A stretch of DNA of 21,132 nt from Gemmatimonadota bacterium. GTDB taxonomy: Bacteria; Latescibacterota; UBA2968; UBA8231. The stretch spans positions 1-21,132 of the forward strand of contig JAYOYH010000064.1 in assembly GCA_038153405.1 (NCBI GenBank), read 5' to 3'. Both the position numbers and the translations under genes were made by a program. This document shows positions 5,867 through 21,132 of this stretch, one piece after another (position 1 is the first letter of the stretch; each line of letters opens with the position of its first letter). Below the pieces are notes generated by a model that was not told the DNA's origin, searched no databases, and worked only from the letters and a program-made list of their open reading frames with translations.

Positions 5867-8026
5867 TCAAGACCTATCAGAGGACGCCTGTTCTTCGGAG
5901 CTTGCTTGCCCATCTTCTCCCTCCTCAGTGCTGGTTATGGGTTTGGCTTCGATGCCCATAGATTCCAGCCGAAAGCAGAAGCCGACGTGATCGGCGATCA
6001 GCGTATCTTCGCTATTACCCATCACTAGGCGCACACCGGCAAATGCCTTGCCGGTAACGACAATTTCTGCATTCTCCAGCGAGGAGTCCAGCATTTTTTT
6101 AAGCTCCTCCCTCTGGTTAAACGATTTTTCTCTGATCTCGAGCAGGTCGTAAAGCTTTTTAACGACTTCTCGCACGATTCTCTTTTTGCCGGGGGCCGTA
6201 TTGCGTAGGACCACTTTGATCTGCGCCGAGTTGGCCTCTTCGAGACCGAGGGTGCGCAGGAGACGCATGGAATTTGAATCGCAAAAATCAACTTGCTCGT
6301 TGATCTTGTTGATCTGCGCCGAGACTTTCGGATCGGCGCTAATGCTGATGAGCGTGCCGGATGTGGTGGCCGAACCCGCATACTGACAGGTGATGCAATG
6401 GGCGGCAATGGCCTCGCCGCCAACGATGCTGCCGCCGCGATCGCCGCCTCCGGGATGGACTGTGATATTGCTGTTGGATCGCAACATAGAGTTAAAGGCA
6501 TAGCTGCCAATCTCGATGTCGCCCTTGGCCGCAACCGCGGCGTTGAGAATGAACTGCGCCTGCACACAGCCTTCGGAGAGGGCGCCCAAGGCCACGACGC
6601 TCGTGCCGCCGCCGATAATGCCGCGCGAGATAATAATATCGCCCTTAGCGCGCAGGGTTGCACCGCTCTCGACGTTGCCGCCGACAGTGATCGATCCTCC
6701 GGCTTTGACGGTAAAGCCGGAGCCCACGTCGCCGTTTATCTGCACATCGTGCGGCGTATCGATATTGCCAACTTCGTAGTCGACGTTGCCGCTCACGACA
6801 AAAACCTGTTTGACGTCGATGCTGCCCTTGCCAACGTGCACGTTGCCGCTGGTCATCGCGTAGAATTGAGTGGGCGGGTTGCCTTCGCTGCGCACATTTT
6901 CACCGGCGGTAAAGCTCAGCGAATCGTCGCCGTCGTTGGCCGTCAGCGCATTGCCGCACACGTCGATCCCCGCCTGCCCCTGCGTCGCTTGGATCAGCGT
7001 GCCTAGCAGTTGGCCTTCCTCGACGGCAATTACCGAGTTGCGCTCGCGTAGGTCGATGCTGCCGTCGGGGTTGATCTTACCGGCCAACTTCTCCGGGTTG
7101 AATCCCAAATCCATACGGGCGTCTTGCCCGTGGGCCGGCGGGGTGCCGCGTGCGATCAGGCGCGCCTTAGGCTGAGTGTGAGGCAGGGGCTTCTGACTGA
7201 CCAACTCTATGTTTTTAGTGACAAATCCAGATTTGACGCCACATTCGTTAAGCGTAGCCTGTAGGACTTCTGAACCGATGGACGGATGGCTCTTCGGTAG
7301 TGGGAAATGGACGAAGTAGGCGCGCATGGAGTCTTCGGTAATCCAGATGGGAGGAATTACCGATAATGTATCCTGTATCTGACAAACATATCCCATCTGG
7401 TCGGCGATAAAGCGGTTATCCGTTTGGCTTACGTTGGAACCCGCCTCCAGCGAGACTTCTTCTCCTGGCTTTTCGATGCTATTGCCGAGGACTTCGCGGC
7501 CCGGTGTGCCCGGCGTGGCGGCAATGACCGTTGCCAACTCGTCGCCGGGCATGACCCAAATGCACTCCGTGCTCTTGGCTAGCACCGCTTCAATTGTTTT
7601 CTGTTCGAAGGCGTCTTTAATCTGCCTGTAGGCTGGTAAAGGGCCGCTGTGCTCTTTTAGGTAGGCGTATTCGATGCGTCCGTTGGTGCCGGGCTTGGCT
7701 AGCGTGCCAAGGGCCACGACAAAATTCCCCTGTACCGTCTCTTCGGGATCTTCCAGACACTTTTCGGCCAGTTCGGCAACGGCATCGCCGTCGAGGCCGT
7801 GTTTTATATCGTACTGCTCGGTTAGCGCAGTGGTGATATCGCGATGGGACAGGTCGGCATGGCCGCCGAAGGAAATCTGTTTGACGACGGCTTGCATGCG
7901 GTCTGCGGATATATTGACCACCATCCAACTCTCCGGATCGTCGCCGAAGGATTGGCGCTCTGGGGGGAGTTCGACCTCGTCTCGGTCCTCTGAAGTACTT
8001 GCGGTAGCCGCTTGTCGATTATTCAT
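5867..8026 (-). CDS. FapA/DUF342 family protein, paralogue 1 (two tandem FapA_N domains + beta-solenoid)
   Basis: IARGTPPAHGQDA, DGSIDLRERN, AGENV, VSGNVDYEVGNID, INGDVGSGFTVKAGGSITVGGNVE, GSIVGGE, then a coiled-coil insert and terminal solenoid turns. Confidence 0.9.
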   Translation of the reverse strand: MNNRQAATASTSEDRDEVELPPERQSFGDDPESWMVVNISADRMQAVVKQISFGGHADLSHRDITTALTEQYDIKHGLDGDAVAELAEKCLEDPEETVQGNFVVALGTLAKPGTNGRIEYAYLKEHSGPLPAYRQIKDAFEQKTIEAVLAKSTECIWVMPGDELATVIAATPGTPGREVLGNSIEKPGEEVSLEAGSNVSQTDNRFIADQMGYVCQIQDTLSVIPPIWITEDSMRAYFVHFPLPKSHPSIGSEVLQATLNECGVKSGFVTKNIELVSQKPLPHTQPKARLIARGTPPAHGQDARMDLGFNPEKLAGKINPDGSIDLRERNSVIAVEEGQLLGTLIQATQGQAGIDVCGNALTANDGDDSLSFTAGENVRSEGNPPTQFYAMTSGNVHVGKGSIDVKQVFVVSGNVDYEVGNIDTPHDVQINGDVGSGFTVKAGGSITVGGNVESGATLRAKGDIIISRGIIGGGTSVVALGALSEGCVQAQFILNAAVAAKGDIEIGSYAFNSMLRSNSNITVHPGGGDRGGSIVGGEAIAAHCITCQYAGSATTSGTLISISADPKVSAQINKINEQVDFCDSNSMRLLRTLGLEEANSAQIKVVLRNTAPGKKRIVREVVKKLYDLLEIREKSFNQREELKKMLDSSLENAEIVVTGKAFAGVRLVMGNSEDTLIADHVGFCFRLESMGIEAKPITSTEEGEDGQASSEEQASSDRS

Positions 8027-13677: not shown

Positions 13678-15816
13678 TTAAATGGATCGGTGAGCTACGT
13701 GCTCTTCTTCCAAGTAGAACGCCGAGCGCTTGATTTCCTTGGAAACCATAAAAATGGCGTCGCCAATGTCAATTTCTACGCCAGAGTGCACCGTGCCGGC
13801 GATTTCGATGGTCGCACCTTCGGCAACCTCGGCATTCTTTTCGATCAGCGGTTCCATGTCGGTGTTCACCTTTTCGCGCAGCTCGGCCATCTCATACAGT
13901 TTGTCGACCGCTTCTGAAATCATCGCCTTGCGTGCGTTAGGGGCCTGGCGAATCAAATTTTTCAGACGTTCGACATCGATAGAATCGACGCCGAGAGAGT
14001 GCAGCTGGCGATCGATGGAGACGTCCAGTTCGCGCAGCTGCTTGCGCAGCTTGGCGAGTTTGATAGCGGAAACGGGGTCCGCGTTAAGGCCTATAATCGT
14101 GCCGGCAGTCGTCGAGGAGCCGATCTGAGTTGCCTGAATTGACTGGGCGGCAAAGACCTCGCCGCCGACGATGCTGCCGCCGCGCTTGCCGCCGCCGGTG
14201 TGGACGGCTATTTGCCCGCCGCAGCGCACCTGAGCATTGAAGATGTAGCTGCCAATTTCTATGCCTTCCTTGGCCAATACGGCGGCGTTTTGAATAAACT
14301 TACACTGCACGGTGCCCATGGAAATCAGGCCGCGCGCCACCACATTTGTGTGCTCGCCGACGATGCCCTGCGCGACGATGACATCGCCCTGAGCTACGAC
14401 GGTGGCGCCGGGCTCTATGGAGCCGCCAATTGTAATGGTGCCGCCCGACTCAACGGTGAAGCCCGAGCGCACCGTGCCGGCGATTTGCACGTCGATGGGC
14501 GTGTCGATATTGCCCGTCTCGTAGTCGACGTCGCCGCTGATGACGTAGAGCGGTTTTACGTGTAGCGTATCGCCCGCTACGTGCGCGTTGCCTTCGACGG
14601 TAGCGTAGAAGGCGGTAGGAGGGTCGCCTTCGGCGCGCACGTTCTCTCCCGCCTTGTAGACGTACTCCGTGCCGTCGGTCGCGGGCAGCTCTTCGCCAAA
14701 AATCGTATAGCCCTTCAGGCCTTCAGTCGCCGGGTGCACGGTGGCTAACTGCTGGTCCTCGGCCACGCCAATAACCAGGTTGCGCTCGCGAAAGTCGATG
14801 CTGCCATCGGGTAGGATCGTGCCGGCGCGCTTCTCCGGATCAAACGTGTATTCGATGCGCGTGTCCTCGCCGTTCATGGCTTTGCTCCCACGGGCAAGCG
14901 TCAAATAGCGCTTGCGCTTAGGCGAGAGGCGTTTGGAACACAGCTTTTCCACGGCTCGATCGTCGGTGCCTTGGGTCACGCCAGCTTGGGCGATCATGGC
15001 GTGCACCATTTCGGGCGTCGGCAGGGGCGGTTTGGCCAGCAGCTCGAGGTGGATATAGACGGCGCGCATGGCATCGGCTGACAGCCATAGGGCAGGTGCG
15101 ATGGACAGTTCGTCGTCTTTCAGACCTACGTAGCCGTACGCTTCGGAGATAACGGCATCCTCTTCGATGCGCACGTGCGCGCCGGCCTCAATGGGCGCTT
15201 GTCGCCCGGACACATTGAGCTCTTCGCCGTGGATATTGCGCCCCGGCTTGCCAGGGGTCGGCGGATGGATGCGCGCTAGGACCTGGTCAGGTGCTACGAT
15301 AATGCCGCGCGCATCGCTTTTCATAACAGCTTCTAGCGGCTGCTGGCGTATGGCCGCATGCACGCGGTAGGCCTCGGTCAGGCGCTCTTCGCTTAGGCCT
15401 TTTTCCCACTCGATGCGGCCGTCATCACCGGGGATAGCGTTGGTGGCGCGCGCGATGACCTGATTGCACTTCATCACGCTGTGCGGCTTTGTCAGCGCGC
15501 GGCCCAGCACGGCGACAATCGCCTCCTCATCAATGCCGTGTTCGATGTTATAGTGCTCGGTCAGCGCCTGGGCAATATCGCTCGGCGTTAAATCCGTATC
15601 GCCCCCGGGTGCCAGCTGGGTCAGCGTGGCTGACGTGCCGCGCTCGCTGACGCGCACGGTCATCCACGTGGCCGGTCCCTGGCCAAAACTCTGGCGCTCG
15701 TCAGACGGTGCTTCTTCTGTGTCGTCTTGGCTGCCGCTTCGCTCTAAATAGCGCTCATCTAGGCTGGCAGCGCCTTTGTGTTCGCGGGTGCGCGCGCGTC
15801 TGCTTGGTTGTATCAT
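13678..15816 (-). CDS. FapA/DUF342 family protein, paralogue 2 (two tandem FapA_N domains + beta-solenoid)
   Basis: Same motifs as paralogue 1: LARGSKAMNGED, DGSIDFRERN, AGENVRAEGDPPT, ISGDVDYETGNIDTP, GGSIVGGE. Confidence 0.9.
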   Translation of the reverse strand: MIQPSRRARTREHKGAASLDERYLERSGSQDDTEEAPSDERQSFGQGPATWMTVRVSERGTSATLTQLAPGGDTDLTPSDIAQALTEHYNIEHGIDEEAIVAVLGRALTKPHSVMKCNQVIARATNAIPGDDGRIEWEKGLSEERLTEAYRVHAAIRQQPLEAVMKSDARGIIVAPDQVLARIHPPTPGKPGRNIHGEELNVSGRQAPIEAGAHVRIEEDAVISEAYGYVGLKDDELSIAPALWLSADAMRAVYIHLELLAKPPLPTPEMVHAMIAQAGVTQGTDDRAVEKLCSKRLSPKRKRYLTLARGSKAMNGEDTRIEYTFDPEKRAGTILPDGSIDFRERNLVIGVAEDQQLATVHPATEGLKGYTIFGEELPATDGTEYVYKAGENVRAEGDPPTAFYATVEGNAHVAGDTLHVKPLYVISGDVDYETGNIDTPIDVQIAGTVRSGFTVESGGTITIGGSIEPGATVVAQGDVIVAQGIVGEHTNVVARGLISMGTVQCKFIQNAAVLAKEGIEIGSYIFNAQVRCGGQIAVHTGGGKRGGSIVGGEVFAAQSIQATQIGSSTTAGTIIGLNADPVSAIKLAKLRKQLRELDVSIDRQLHSLGVDSIDVERLKNLIRQAPNARKAMISEAVDKLYEMAELREKVNTDMEPLIEKNAEVAEGATIEIAGTVHSGVEIDIGDAIFMVSKEIKRSAFYLEEEHVAHRSI

Positions 15817-16570: not shown

Positions 16571-18254
16571 GCAAATCGAGCGCGTTGAGCACGTCTTGGG
16601 GCCCCAGCCACCCCTTGCGCGCACAGCCGATGCCGTAGGCCAGGTGGTCTAGGCCTGCGGTGCGGTGTGCATCGGTGTTGACGCTGAGTAGGACACCGGC
16701 CTGATGCGCCCTGCGCACGTGGCGCCAGTCTAGGTCTAAGCGCGCCGGATGGGCGTTGATCTCAATGCTGACGCGGTGTTGGGCAGCTGCCGCAAAAATT
16801 GCCTCGAAGTCGAGATCGTAGCCCTCGCGGTCGAGGAGCAGGCGGCCGGTCAAATGGCCGATGATCGTGGTGGCCGGATGCTCGATTGCGCGCAGAAAAC
16901 GCCGAGTCATGGCGTCGCGGTCGAGGTTGAACTGCGAGTGAACGGAAGCGACGACAAAGTCGAATTGCTCCAGTATGGAATCTTCGTAGTCGAGCGATCC
17001 ATCGGCGAGGATATCCGACTCAATGCCCTTGAAAATGTGGAAGGGCGCTAGCGCTTCGTTGAGCGCGTCGATCTCGTCCCACTGGCGTTTGACAGCGTCT
17101 ACTTTTAGGCCGCCGGCGTAGGCGGCCGACTGGCTGTGGTCGGCCATGCCCATGTAGGGGTAGCCCCGTTCTTGCACAGCGGCGGCCATGGCCGCAATCG
17201 AGTCGGCGCCGTCGCTGTAGGTCGAGTGCAGATGCAGCATGCCGCAGACGTCATCCGCGCGTATCAGCTCGGGGAGTTGGCCGGCGGAGGCCGCCTCAAT
17301 CTCGCCTAGTCCCTCGCGCAGCTCCGGCGCAATATAATCGAGTCCGAGCGCGCGGAAAAAGGTCTCCTCGTCGGCGCATTCGACGAGCTCGTCTCCCTTG
17401 AAAAGGCCGTATTCGTTGATCTTGAGGCCCATATCATTCGCGCGGGCGCGCAGCGCGACATTGTGATCCTTGCTGCCGGTAAAGTGGTGCAGTACATAGG
17501 GAAATTCATCGTCGGCAACTACGCGCAAATCGGCCTGTATGCCGCCGTGCAGGCGCACGGCGCTCTTGGTGGGCCCTTGCTGCAGGATCTCGGCGACGGA
17601 GTCGTGCCCGACAAAGTAGGCGCTGCTGGCTTCGGGGTCGCTCGAACTGAGCACGAAGTCGATGTCCTTGACCGTTTCGCGCCAGCGGCGCAGCGAGCCG
17701 GTCGCTTCTACGCGCAGGGTGGCCGGATGGGCGCGCAACGCCTCGAGCAGGGGCTGTGCGCTCTGGCGCGCCTGGTCGGCGCGCGACCGGTCCTGATAGC
17801 GGCGAATGTGCTCGATGCCCTTGAGGATGTTGTCCTGAGTCTTCTTGCCAAAGCCCTTGAGCTCGCCCAAGCGGCCGTCGCGGCAGGCCGCCGCCAGCGC
17901 CTCGAGGTTGTCAATGCCCAACGCGCTGCGAATGGCGTTGATCTTGCGGGGCCCTAGGCCGGGCACGCGCAGCATATCGAGCAGCCCCGGTGGAATTTCG
18001 CCGCGCAGTTTTTCGTAGGCCTGTGCCGTGCCGCGCTGAGCATATTCGCCGATTAGGGTAGCCACGCTCTTGCCGATGCCCTTGATGTCGGTGAGGGTGT
18101 TGCGGTCGATGAGGTCCTCGAGGTCGCCGTCGAAGTTTTCGATGATGCGCACGGCGTTGGCGTAGGCGCGGGTGCGAAATGCATCGGCACCGCTCAACTC
18201 GAGCAGGGTGCAGTATTCGTCGAGGAAATCGGCTATTTCGCGCGCGCTTTTCAC
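16536..18254 (-). CDS. polX: DNA polymerase X / PHP 3'-5' exonuclease
   Basis: AFRTRAY, HhH IKGIGKS / VPGLGPRK / LKGFGKKT, GSLRR..TVKDIDF and ADLRVV (catalytic Asp triad intact), HFTGSKDHN; PHP motifs HLHSTYSDG, DHS, GIESDI, VHS, GHLTGR, EIN, TDAH. GTGA overlap with the cysQ-like gene. Confidence 0.95.
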   Translation of the reverse strand: MKSAREIADFLDEYCTLLELSGADAFRTRAYANAVRIIENFDGDLEDLIDRNTLTDIKGIGKSVATLIGEYAQRGTAQAYEKLRGEIPPGLLDMLRVPGLGPRKINAIRSALGIDNLEALAAACRDGRLGELKGFGKKTQDNILKGIEHIRRYQDRSRADQARQSAQPLLEALRAHPATLRVEATGSLRRWRETVKDIDFVLSSSDPEASSAYFVGHDSVAEILQQGPTKSAVRLHGGIQADLRVVADDEFPYVLHHFTGSKDHNVALRARANDMGLKINEYGLFKGDELVECADEETFFRALGLDYIAPELREGLGEIEAASAGQLPELIRADDVCGMLHLHSTYSDGADSIAAMAAAVQERGYPYMGMADHSQSAAYAGGLKVDAVKRQWDEIDALNEALAPFHIFKGIESDILADGSLDYEDSILEQFDFVVASVHSQFNLDRDAMTRRFLRAIEHPATTIIGHLTGRLLLDREGYDLDFEAIFAAAAQHRVSIEINAHPARLDLDWRHVRRAHQAGVLLSVNTDAHRTAGLDHLAYGIGCARKGWLGPQDVLNALDLHAFRRFLHERH

Positions 18255-19039
18255 GAGTTGACCTCGTCAATCAGGTGCAGCATCTGCCCGGTCAGCGCTT
18301 CGTTGCCGGCGACCAGGCCACCGCGCAGTAGGGGGTCGGGTTGGTTGTAGTGGCGCTGACGGCCCGTTAGGTCGAGCATGCGCCCACCCGACTCGCGCAC
18401 CAGCAGGTCGCCGGCGCAGATATCCCACTCGTTTTTGCTCTGCACGCTAAAGTTGAAATCGCAGGCACCAGCGGCTACCAGCGCCAGTTTGTAGGCCACG
18501 CTGCCGACCGGCGTTATCGCACCCAGATGCGGACGGAAGGGGTCTATTTCGCCGCGCTTGTCCTCGCTGCGGCTGACGACCGATGTGGCCGTCGACAGGT
18601 CGTCTTGCTCTGAGCAAAACACGCGTTTGCCGTTGAGAAAAGTGCCGCCGTTGCGCACGGCTGCATAGAGGTCGTCTTTAGCCGGATTGAAGATGACGCC
18701 GACGCTGGGCACGCCGCCCTCGACCAGCGCGACGCAGACGACGTATTCGGGCAGGCCCTCCACAAATTCGCGCGTGCCGTCGATCGGATCGACGATCCAG
18801 GCCTTTTCTCGAGTCAGCCGCACGCCGTCGTCTACCGTTTCTTCGGAGAGCCAGCCGTAGTCGGGACGCGCCGCGAGCAGATGCTCTTTGAGCAGGGCAT
18901 TGGAGGCCAGATCGGCCGTGGTTAGCGGGTCGCCGCCGCCCTTGTCCTCGACGGTATATGCTCCCCTAAAATGCTGCAGCGTGAGGGCTCCGGCCTGGCG
19001 CGCGGCGTCCATGGCTAGCTCTAAGTCGGCGTGTTTCAA
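18251..19039 (-). CDS. cysQ: 3'(2'),5'-bisphosphate nucleotidase CysQ / inositol monophosphatase family
   Basis: DPLTTAD, WLSEE, WIVDPIDGTREF, GSVAYK, EWDICAG. Likely start TTG 19039; the ORF-track extension to 19129 is non-homologous and reaches the terminator U-tract. Confidence 0.85.
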   Translation of the reverse strand: MKHADLELAMDAARQAGALTLQHFRGAYTVEDKGGGDPLTTADLASNALLKEHLLAARPDYGWLSEETVDDGVRLTREKAWIVDPIDGTREFVEGLPEYVVCVALVEGGVPSVGVIFNPAKDDLYAAVRNGGTFLNGKRVFCSEQDDLSTATSVVSRSEDKRGEIDPFRPHLGAITPVGSVAYKLALVAAGACDFNFSVQSKNEWDICAGDLLVRESGGRMLDLTGRQRHYNQPDPLLRGGLVAGNEALTGQMLHLIDEVNS

Positions 19040-19127
19040 AAGGCAATATCCGGTTTGTATGAGCGAGCGCCTGAAAATAGGCGATGCGGCAAACGCGGGC
19101 AATGCTTGGTGGGGAGTGGGGCGGGGC

Positions 19128-19155
19128 AAAAAAAAGTCCCCACTTCCCTGTGGGG
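19128..19155 (-). terminator. Intrinsic terminator of a minus-strand transcript
   Basis: Minus strand CCCCAC-AGGGAA-GTGGGG-AC-TTTTTTTT. No credible minus-strand CDS ends upstream of it. Confidence 0.8.
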
Positions 19156-19280
19156 TTTAAGCCAACGTCCCTGTCGGCTGGATTTGTGCTGCTGCGCGTC
19201 GAGCACAATTCCTTTTAACTCGTTTATCGGCAAATTGCCGATCCTCTCCAGCGCTCTTTTCAACGGGTCTTCAGCTTGAC
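19128..19280 (-). ncRNA. Candidate structured sRNA or leader RNA with CsrA/RsmE-type GGA hairpins
   Basis: Four consecutive hairpins on -: AUCGGCA/UGCCGAU, UUGUGCU/AGCACAA, AGCCGAC-AGGGAC-GUUGGCU, CCCCAC-AGGGAA-GUGGGG-(AC)-U8. The 5' end is inferred. Confidence 0.55.
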
Positions 19281-19304
19281 ATATGAAGGGGGCAAAAGTA
19301 GATT
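19276..19304 (+). promoter_or_regulatory. Sigma70-type promoter for the downstream + strand genes
   Basis: TTGACA (19276-19281) - 17 nt - TAGATT (19299-19304). Confidence 0.75.
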
Positions 19305-19363
19305 GAAAACGCTCGACTTACCACTTTCCCATATGCAGAAACTGAGTGCTGATGAGATCAATT

Positions 19364-19996
19364 ATGCGATATATTGCGCTCTCTGTTGCGACGCTGCTGG
19401 CCGGTGTGACGGAGGGCGCAGAGGCGCAAATAGAGGCGGGTCAGGTGCGCACCCTGCTCGAGGAGCTCCAGTCCGACAACCTGTGGGGCGAAGCCGTGCT
19501 GGCCGGTGGTCAGATACGCTCCATACAAGTGGGCGAAATAGCGGAGGACAGCGTGCACGTCACCGAGGTTTACGGCGCCCTACAGCGCCGCCAGGCCACC
19601 TATGCCGTGGCCGATTTTAGCGCGCTGCGCCCGCTGGGCAGCGAGCGGATACAGCTGCGCCGGGCTGCCTACGGACGCAGCAAGTCCATGCTCGGAGCCC
19701 TGCTCTTAGAAACCGTCGTGCCTGGTGGCGGCTACCTCTATATTGGCGAAACGCGCCAGGCGCTGGCCCTATGGGGGCTGACGGGTGTGGCTGCGGCTAC
19801 CGCCATTGCCACGGGCGAAGACGGGGCGGCCGGCTGGGCCCCTCTGTCGGCGTGGATCAAGGTGGCGTCGCTCTTTCAACTGCGCGACAAGGTGCGGGCG
19901 ATGAACGCCAACGCTGTGGCTTGGCGCGTAGACGTCGGTGCGTTAGCCGGTCGGCAGGGTGCCGTGCCCGCGCTGAGCGTGCGCGTCGGCTTCTGA
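19364..19996 (+). CDS. Secreted/membrane hypothetical protein (TM2/DUF5683-like glycine-rich hairpin, C-terminal Phe)
   Basis: ATG 19364 gives signal peptide MRYIALSVATLLAGVTEGAEA/Q; motif ALLLETVVPGGGYLYIGE..QAL followed by hydrophobic helices; ends ALSVRVGF. Confidence 0.7.
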   Translation: MRYIALSVATLLAGVTEGAEAQIEAGQVRTLLEELQSDNLWGEAVLAGGQIRSIQVGEIAEDSVHVTEVYGALQRRQATYAVADFSALRPLGSERIQLRRAAYGRSKSMLGALLLETVVPGGGYLYIGETRQALALWGLTGVAAATAIATGEDGAAGWAPLSAWIKVASLFQLRDKVRAMNANAVAWRVDVGALAGRQGAVPALSVRVGF

Positions 19997-20040: not shown

Positions 20041-20463
<423 letters not shown>

Positions 20464-20628: not shown

Positions 20629-21132
20629 CTACACCGCGCCGGAGTCGTCGGCATGGGCTTCCTCGAGGGTGTCCTTGTAGCGGACGTCGGGGCTTTCGAT
20701 GCCGTGGAGCATCATGTTCATGCTCCCGATGCGGAGCATGGTGGAATCGAAATCAAAGCCATGAAAGATGTCCTCGGAAAAGCGCTTGCGGGCGGCTTCG
20801 TCGGCAAAGATCTCGGCCTGGTGGTTCTCGCGCAGGTATTCCCCGGCGGCCACGAGGAATCCGCAGGTCCCGCAGGCGGGGTCGCAGATGACGTCGGCGG
20901 GGGTGGGCGCGGTCATCTTCACCATCAGATCGATGATGTGGCGGGGGGTGCGAAACTGTCCGTTTTGCCCGGCGGAGGCGATCTTGCCCAGCATGTATTC
21001 GTAGACGTCGCCCTTGAGGTCGCGGTCGTGCATGGGGAGCTCGTCGAGCCGGTCGATGACGTTGGCGAGCAGGCGGGGTGTAGGCATGATGAAGAGGGCC
21101 TCCTTCATGTGGGAAGCGTAGAGGCTTTCGGG
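20629..21132 (-). pseudogene. hsdM: Type I restriction-modification methyltransferase subunit, truncated before motif IV (5' end outside window)
   Basis: Frame is open to the window edge. KGDVYEYML, GQNGQFRTPRHII, motif I DPACGTCGFL, GFDFDSTMLRIGSMNMMLHG; TAG at 20629-20631 precedes the expected NPPF motif. Confidence 0.85.

Follow-up and report, generated by a model that had tools for sequence, protein, structure and literature searches.

A predicted flagellin-leader-like RNA with two CsrA-type sites and a sigma28-type promoter in a FliW-bearing bacterium of an uncultured phylum

The usual picture of CsrA antagonism is one of sRNA sponges under BarA-UvrY in the Gammaproteobacteria and of the protein FliW elsewhere. 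The RNAs of the CsrB/CsrC and RsmX/Y/Z type are free-standing, present many GGA motifs in hairpin loops, end at an intrinsic terminator, sequester CsrA competitively and are controlled by BarA-UvrY or GacS-GacA (PMC7652899). In a 2020 review, FliW and sRNAs are described as anti-correlated, and whether they act together in any species 'remains to be determined' (PMC7652899). In 2014, CsrA RNAs with two sites were predicted for Clostridia and Bacillales (PMC4333381), and TwoAYGGAY (RF01731) and the reverse complement of Bacillaceae-1 (RF01690), both with two CsrA-type loops, have been proposed as sponges outside the Gammaproteobacteria (PMC4333381; bioRxiv 10.64898/2026.09.22.753630; PMC2864571); the two loops of TwoAYGGAY stand on a shared basal stem, and in Pseudomonas it occurs in multiple copies associated with repeats (bioRxiv 10.64898/2026.09.22.753630). 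Non-coding RNAs with a late-flagellar promoter are represented by FlmR/CJnc170 of C. jejuni (PMC11187230) and by the attack-phase sRNAs of Bdellovibrio (PMC3627812), for which the available parts of these papers describe no CsrA sites, the Bdellovibrio paper making no mention of CsrA. The closest tested case for the element reported here is the flaA leader of C. jejuni, a FliA-dependent RNA whose two neighbouring GGA hexaloops, 21 nt apart, are believed to be bound by a single CsrA dimer; flaA titrates CsrA beside FliW, is an mRNA and itself a target, and a short 'flaA_mini' decoy has been engineered from it (PMC4894983).

The element lies in a contig of 21,132 nt (JAYOYH010000064.1; this whole stretch is referred to as the window) and its parts are listed in Table 1. 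We read it as a free-standing, flagellin-leader-like RNA that would bind one CsrA dimer in a FliW-bearing bacterium, and give this reading a probability of roughly three in four. As in the flaA leader, two adjacent hexaloops, here 23 nt apart, follow a promoter of the flagellar type; unlike flaA, the element is non-coding, ends at a predicted terminator of its own and stands apart from flagellar genes. Judged by consensus match, the order of parts is that of flagellin mRNA leaders of the hag/flaA type, a sigma28-type promoter and then two CsrA sites, but site 2 leads into a terminator stem and U tail instead of a flagellin ribosome-binding site, and the next gene is cysQ-like. The predicted build is that of a flagellin leader whose copy of the motif at the ribosome site became a terminator loop. 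With CsrB/CsrC and RsmX/Y/Z the element shares its free-standing form, GGA hairpin loops, intrinsic terminator, predicted competitive sequestration and a host that encodes CsrA with the RNA-binding residues; it differs from them in exposing two sites instead of many, in its promoter, in matching no family of their Rfam clan at cut-off, and in a host that has FliW where those organisms do not. It is also unlike TwoAYGGAY: a basal stem is missing, the loops are mostly AGGGA, it occurs as a single copy in a genome, its promoter is of the sigma28 type, and site 2 is the loop of the terminator; a search of the genome with RF01731 gave no match up to E 10. A literature search at the level of listings and abstracts found no report of the element or of a sigma28-driven stand-alone CsrA decoy, although motif catalogues may list it, and the accessible part of a 2026 survey of CsrA proteins names no such RNA (PMC13443453).

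Table 1. Predicted parts of the element and flanking features (positions in the window).
Feature	Position	Strand	Remarks
Predicted sigma28 -35 box, TGGAG	19246..19250	-	family form T-N-R-A-G, drifted from TAAAG of the genome's own flagellin promoters; function inferred
Predicted sigma28 -10 box, GCCGATAA	19224..19231	-	GCCGATA invariant in the 13-sequence alignment
Predicted small RNA	19128..19218	-	about 90 nt; start inferred 6-8 nt past the -10 box; covariance-model match and fold
P1, 5' hairpin	19180..19212	-	sequence variable, structure kept
P2, hairpin with CsrA-type site 1 as hexaloop	19160..19179	-	ACAGGGACGU at 19174-19165
P3, predicted intrinsic-terminator hairpin, loop is CsrA-type site 2	19138..19155	-	ACAGGGAAGU at 19151-19142
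U8 tail of predicted terminator	19128..19135	-	kept in homologues
Predicted sigma70-type promoter of downstream gene, TTGCCC-17-TATTTT	19074..19102	-	past the terminator; in genomes with and without the RNA; consensus match only
Inositol-monophosphatase-family gene, cysQ-like, then polX, udk	18251..19039	-	PF00459; start 19039 or 19012
Predicted sigma70-type promoter of divergent gene, TTGACA-17-TAGATT	19276..19304	+	flank, outside the RNA; kept in relatives with and without the RNA
Divergent gene	19346-19996	+	no Pfam or NCBIfam match; position conserved across the family

An earlier note, made from this DNA alone, had placed here an RNA of about 150 nt in which a terminator followed three further hairpins, the last two presenting CsrA-type loops. 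Both 10-mers lie where it put them, and their AGGGAN-type hexaloops closed by AC/GU are predicted with a probability of about 1.0; no credible CDS leads into the terminator, and P3 with its U8 tail is the only terminator-like site of the region. The predicted terminator is not a separate structure, since site 2 is its loop, and the first of the proposed hairpins (19242–19226) overlaps the conserved -10 box and is not kept as a hairpin in the homologue alignment. The additional GGA sites proposed in the note did not hold up: those of CUGGAGAGGAU fall within the predicted -35 box and the spacer and are therefore probably not transcribed, and that of AAAAGGAAUU is predicted to be paired in a stem (unpaired probability 0.01). 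Because the conserved sigma28-type promoter (19250–19224, a consensus match) lies inside the interval of the earlier note, the start of the RNA is likely near 19218 and its length about 90 nt. It exposes only two GGA sites, both perfect matches to the CsrA consensus and predicted to be unpaired, while its other two GGAs are predicted in this copy to be mostly paired (unpaired 0.01 and 0.34).

The 90-nt unit folds into the three P hairpins in sequence, without a basal stem, with an energy of -34.8 kcal/mol (z -4.15). Because the fold of the plus strand is almost as good (z -3.91), the strand is assigned by the promoter box and the U tail and not by energy. The covariance model finds 19129–19218 at 90 bits as its sole match in the genome, and neither this model nor BLAST yields any paralogue there. 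Single matches to the CsrA consensus are common (3 in the window against 1.6 expected, 317 genome-wide), but only 7 of the 317 lie in a stem of at least 6 bp and two of these 7 are the present pair; pairs of sites on the same strand at most 80 nt apart number five in the whole genome, one being this element and one a flagellin leader. At another locus of the host genome (C2 near 68707, plus strand; L253), two consensus matches lie 29 nt apart upstream of zapA, which may be chance or a non-flagellar target. The earlier note called the RNA RsmY/Z-like; membership of that family is not supported, given the two sites, the sigma28-type promoter and the absence of any Rfam match at gathering score in the window or at nine other loci (five of them homologues). 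A strong match to another family, which that note had named as a ground for rejection, was not seen either. In E-value mode the only match to the Csr/Rsm clan was RsmV in one homologue, at 10.5 bits against a cut-off of 100, and plus-strand matches to SorX, SorY and mir-1249 (12–14 bits, far under cut-off) were taken as chance. A small-peptide gene was likewise rejected, a closed ORF of at least 10 codons lying inside only 12 of 55 homologues. The one RNA run with a word share of 0.10 gave a single contig that covers 19336–19471 only, i.e. outside the element.

For the gene downstream of the element, the best NCBIfam model is CysQ, under its cut-off; polX and udk are over theirs. Elsewhere in the window, two long minus-strand genes resembling FapA (flagellar assembly protein A) stand at 5867–8026 and 13678–15816 among response regulators and histidine kinases, the second confirmed by Pfam and the first judged from its translation. 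Beyond the divergent gene there is a gene for the catalytic chain of ferredoxin-thioredoxin reductase (20041–20463, plus) and, at the contig end, a fragment of an N6-adenine methyltransferase gene (20629–21132, minus).

A T-N-R-A-G box with GCCGATA spaced behind it is the form of a sigma28 (FliA) promoter. In the homologues GCCGATA stands some 50–60 nt ahead of site 1, with the T-N-R-A-G box 14 nt further up, and three flagellin genes of the host have an identical -10 box ahead of them. An independent check on the box comes from a GTDB scan whose pattern asked for the two hairpins alone, with no promoter box: of its 24 hits 20 are the family's element, and all 20 have GCCGATA 48–62 nt before site 1 and a cysQ-like gene downstream, while the other four, unrelated hits in Cellvibrionaceae have neither the box (0/4) nor the cysQ-like gene (0/4). 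The chance of the -10 box is about 0.3% per 15 positions, with the reservation that the 20 hits are related to one another. Those Cellvibrionaceae loci (L038, L042, L052 and L055, at about 1500–1550) carry three tandem CsrA-type hairpins inside a basal stem, a TwoAYGGAY-like build without an Rfam match at gathering score. The -35 box is less regular, being TGGAG in 24 of the 55 distinct homologues, TGAAG in 12, TCAAG in 5 and of other forms in 14; as it is seldom TAAAG (2 of 55), the promoter may be weak or need another factor. The sigma28 consensus has been given as TTAAG-N16-CCGATA (PMC3627812). With as many as 3 mismatches allowed, the surroundings of the element contain no match to a GacA-box pattern.

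By DNA search, 13 of 41 genomes, the host among them, have the element. In 13 of 13 element-bearing genomes located via the neighbouring protein both loops are intact, in agreement with the expectation of the earlier note that the GGA loops be conserved. This latter figure is the unbiased count, because the larger set of 55 distinct homologues was picked by consensus and the invariance of the sites among them is circular. Within that set the two N positions of ACANGGANGU vary freely (at site 1, N1 is G43/U5/A4/C3 and N2 is C33/U21/A1), and with G at N1 in 43 (one site) and 46 (the other) of 55 the loops are mostly AGGGA. The CsrA ligand obtained by SELEX has ACA, GGA and GU fixed in an AC/GU-closed hexaloop (PMC7652899), a consensus with which the N-only variation of both sites agrees. 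The sites are 22–33 nt apart in 49 of the 55 homologues, within the 10–63 nt over which a CsrA dimer bridges sites (PMC7652899). In six long forms hairpins are inserted between the sites, which are 54–85 nt apart, and in five of these the distance of 72–85 nt is past the linear bridging range of the dimer; one copy (G085) is without site 1.

P1 keeps its structure while its sequence varies. Folded one by one, 22 of 22 homologues have a minimum free energy of P1 that is lower than the mean of their shuffles (z -2.4 on average), and all nine of its pairs show two-sided changes in an alignment that was fitted to the model; the stem of P3 has a probability above 0.9 in 52 of 55, and pairing of the terminator stem is complete (100%), one pair being compensated (outer C-G to A-U in 2 of 49). 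In a plain alignment of 21 sequences the share of paired cells (81%), the two-sided changes and the covariation score exceeded all 500 shuffles, while the pair counts were not above them (176 and 53 of 500); in 49 model-aligned sequences, an alignment that leans to structure, all five pairing measures were high. Pairing exceeds all slid controls as well as all 500 shuffles. From the first alignment, of 13 sequences, RNAalifold recovered P2 and P3 only, with zero two-sided changes, and the support for P1 consists of the per-sequence folds and of alignments counted against a given structure. The invariant columns are those of the two sites, the terminator stem and the U tail, and the loops and the box are kept across 12 of 18 genera while the spacers diverge. 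The element is a real, conserved, non-coding one.

Both csrA and fliW, whose presence the earlier note had suggested checking, are in the genome, csrA over its profile cut-off and in the gene order flgL, fliW, csrA; fliA and flgM are present as well, with one FliA-type match per genome. The host CsrA of 76 aa keeps R44 (aligned to solved structures), N55 and the C-terminal extension. Among solved structures its closest match is 5DMB, a FliW-CsrA complex with N55 as the FliW contact (bioRxiv 10.1101/2020.07.02.184341). Nine flagellin-family hits include four with a perfect CsrA-type site over the ribosome-binding region and three clear cases of TAAAG-spaced sigma28-type boxes. Given csrA, fliA, fliW, flgM, the CsrA residues and the flagellin sites together, the flagellin-FliW-CsrA switch appears, at the level of genes and motifs, to be complete. 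The earlier proposal of a CsrA-sequestering sRNA accordingly keeps its core as a prediction (csrA in the genome, loops intact, variation at N positions only) and loses its length and its extra GGAs; the sigma28-type promoter and the co-occurrence with FliW, absent from that note, are the interesting parts.

Some further loci of the same genome deserve mention. A gene for a 100-aa protein with no Pfam match (C10 near 104051, minus strand; L251:922-1221) has a hairpin CsrA-type site and a near-match at its ribosome site and is a candidate CsrA target. Sigma28-type boxes with a TGAAG or TCAAG -35 element occur at C14:5684, C61:16104 and C39:33913 (L247, L248, L249), where they precede an SprA-related gene, a gene for a large exported protein and a stretch without a clear gene; these are possible members of the sigma28 regulon.

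Across 76 genomes of the family the covariance model finds the element, always as a single copy, in 28, and the six weakest matches were on inspection long-form orthologues at the same locus; in 151 genomes of the phylum there are outside the family only six weak matches (21.7–25.9 bits, E 0.01–0.043), and viral contigs gave none. The distribution follows that of the flagellar genes. With csrA in 29 and fliA in 35 of the 76 genomes, RNA and csrA are found together in 22, the RNA only in 6, csrA only in 7 and neither in 41; the corresponding figures for fliA are 26, 2, 9 and 39, so that 39 of the 41 genomes without fliA are also without the RNA. Fisher tests on these tables give p 5e-8 and 2e-10, values that overstate the association because the genomes are related and kin genomes are not independent observations. 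In genus g14 the RNA is present in 5 of 31 genomes, 4 of which have csrA, and the other 26 have neither. Where csrA-less genomes were inspected at the locus, the whole cassette of box, hairpins and tail had gone together in 6 of 6 with the locus kept, and in 5 of the 6 both flanking sigma70-type promoters remained. On a quick tree of the neighbouring protein (40 rows, leaving aside family genomes whose neighbour gene was not fetched), joint absence needs 5 changes, of which strong branches force only 2, and loss of the RNA alone takes 3.

The exceptions go in both directions. Three csrA-positive genomes (G003, G007, G013) have the locus but not the cassette, and a fourth (G042), with csrA, fliA and flagellins, has kept the promoter box upstream of the cysQ-like gene while both sites have decayed (L231); all four have flagellin genes, which makes the RNA dispensable. 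Three other csrA-positive genomes without the RNA (G010, G011, G080) are missing the neighbouring orthologue from the assembly. Among the carriers without csrA, two (G018, G088) have a contig break at flgL-fliW, and three (G047, G085, G086) have the RNA and fliA with no match to flgL, fliW or csrA, probably through assembly gaps; the flgL query is only partly informative as a test for gaps, having also missed csrA-positive G087. The 96% complete G083 has a perfect long-form RNA, no fliA or csrA match and flagellin fragments broken by stops (L107, L112, L117), and may have lost motility recently. Genomes that lack the flagellar system hardly ever retain the RNA, but the flagellar system can do without it.

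A metagenome scan for the box with two sites returned 108 hits, of which 35 are this RNA, 24 are flagellin leaders and 49 are unclassified. The 24 loci (e.g. L128, L129, L139, L153, L209) are flagellin leaders of other bacteria, laid out as a sigma28 box, a CsrA-type hairpin and a second site over the ribosome-binding site. The shared build suggests that the element may have originated from a flagellin leader.

Following the B. subtilis and C. jejuni systems, sigma28 freed at hook completion would transcribe the flagellin genes and the RNA together. The two loops would then span the two RNA-binding faces of a single CsrA dimer, so that the pool of free CsrA would drop at the time of flagellin demand and flagellin translation would rise, the RNA adding a buffer or threshold to the flagellin-FliW-CsrA partner switch. 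With somewhat less assurance than for the reading above, we favour a dedicated, minimal, sigma28-timed CsrA decoy for one dimer, built as a detached flagellin leader and acting with FliW in this uncultured phylum. Among the points against the reading of the element as a CsrA-binding RNA are that site 2 is in a 6-bp G-C stem, whereas the SELEX ligands favoured stems of at most 4 bp (PMC7652899), and that two sites are a low capacity next to RNAs of the CsrB type.

The low number of sites also speaks for the most serious competitor, in which a sigma28-dependent sRNA binds CsrA but acts mainly by base-pairing with mRNAs, CsrA protecting or guiding it. FliA-dependent pairing sRNAs exist, such as FlmR of Campylobacter (PMC11187230), pairing sRNAs with two or more GGA motifs do bind CsrA (PMC7652899), and G083 retains the RNA where csrA is not found. 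We nevertheless consider this improbable, as outside the two loops there is no conserved single-stranded seed and the loops themselves vary at the N positions.

Slightly less probable still is the earlier note's alternative of a CsrA-gated attenuator or leader of the cysQ-like gene, polX and udk, in which CsrA bound to the terminator loop would control how much transcription from the sigma28 promoter reads through. The element does always lie immediately before the cysQ-like gene on the same strand, as do 31 of the 35 metagenome copies, the loop of the terminator is formed by site 2, and in the nascent RNA the 5' arm of the terminator has a mean pairing probability above 0.5 in 16 of 55 homologues. 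The downstream gene has, however, its own predicted promoter, a separate sigma70-type match past the terminator that is also there in genomes lacking the RNA, which makes attenuation unlikely, and the three genes remain where the cassette is deleted; nothing found ties them to flagella. The fold energies of the 55 homologues reveal no conserved antiterminator competing with the terminator, the best terminator-free fold costing a median of 7.1 kcal/mol and less than 3 in only 3 of 55, although there may be a protein-stabilised alternative to the terminator. Synteny is the best explanation for the fixed position ahead of the cysQ-like gene.

It is very unlikely that the RNA is real and its loops bind another GGA-reading protein, or that a sigma factor other than FliA reads the box. 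In 53 of 55 homologues the -35 box is not the TAAAG of the flagellin promoters, csrA was not found in 6 of 28 carriers and the RNA tracks fliA slightly better than csrA; on the other side stand the exact match to the CsrA consensus, down to which positions vary, the identity of the -10 box with that of the genome's own flagellin promoters and the single FliA-type match in each genome. Finally, an untranscribed remnant of a flagellin leader since deleted, or a chance sequence next to a terminator, would account for the leader-like architecture, the frequency of single sites by chance and the decayed copy in G042, but is hardly credible for an element whose loops and box outlast the spacers in 12 of 18 genera, whose pairing stands above every shuffle and slid control and whose losses take box, hairpins and tail as one block.

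The interest of the predicted sigma28-timed decoy is tempered by the fact that sequestration of CsrA by RNA is a known mechanism, that two-site RNAs outside the Gammaproteobacteria had been predicted (PMC4333381), that the flaA leader titrates CsrA where FliW is present (PMC4894983), that the element is confined to one family and that the readings are predictions. It is nevertheless a testable candidate, consisting of a 90-nt RNA, a 76-aa CsrA and FliW from one genome, with relatives that have naturally lost the element as controls. If the reading is true, RNA and protein antagonists of CsrA would exist side by side in the same cell as parts of the flagellar hierarchy, and two-site decoys of this kind could indicate how the CsrA-sponge sRNAs first evolved from flagellin leaders.
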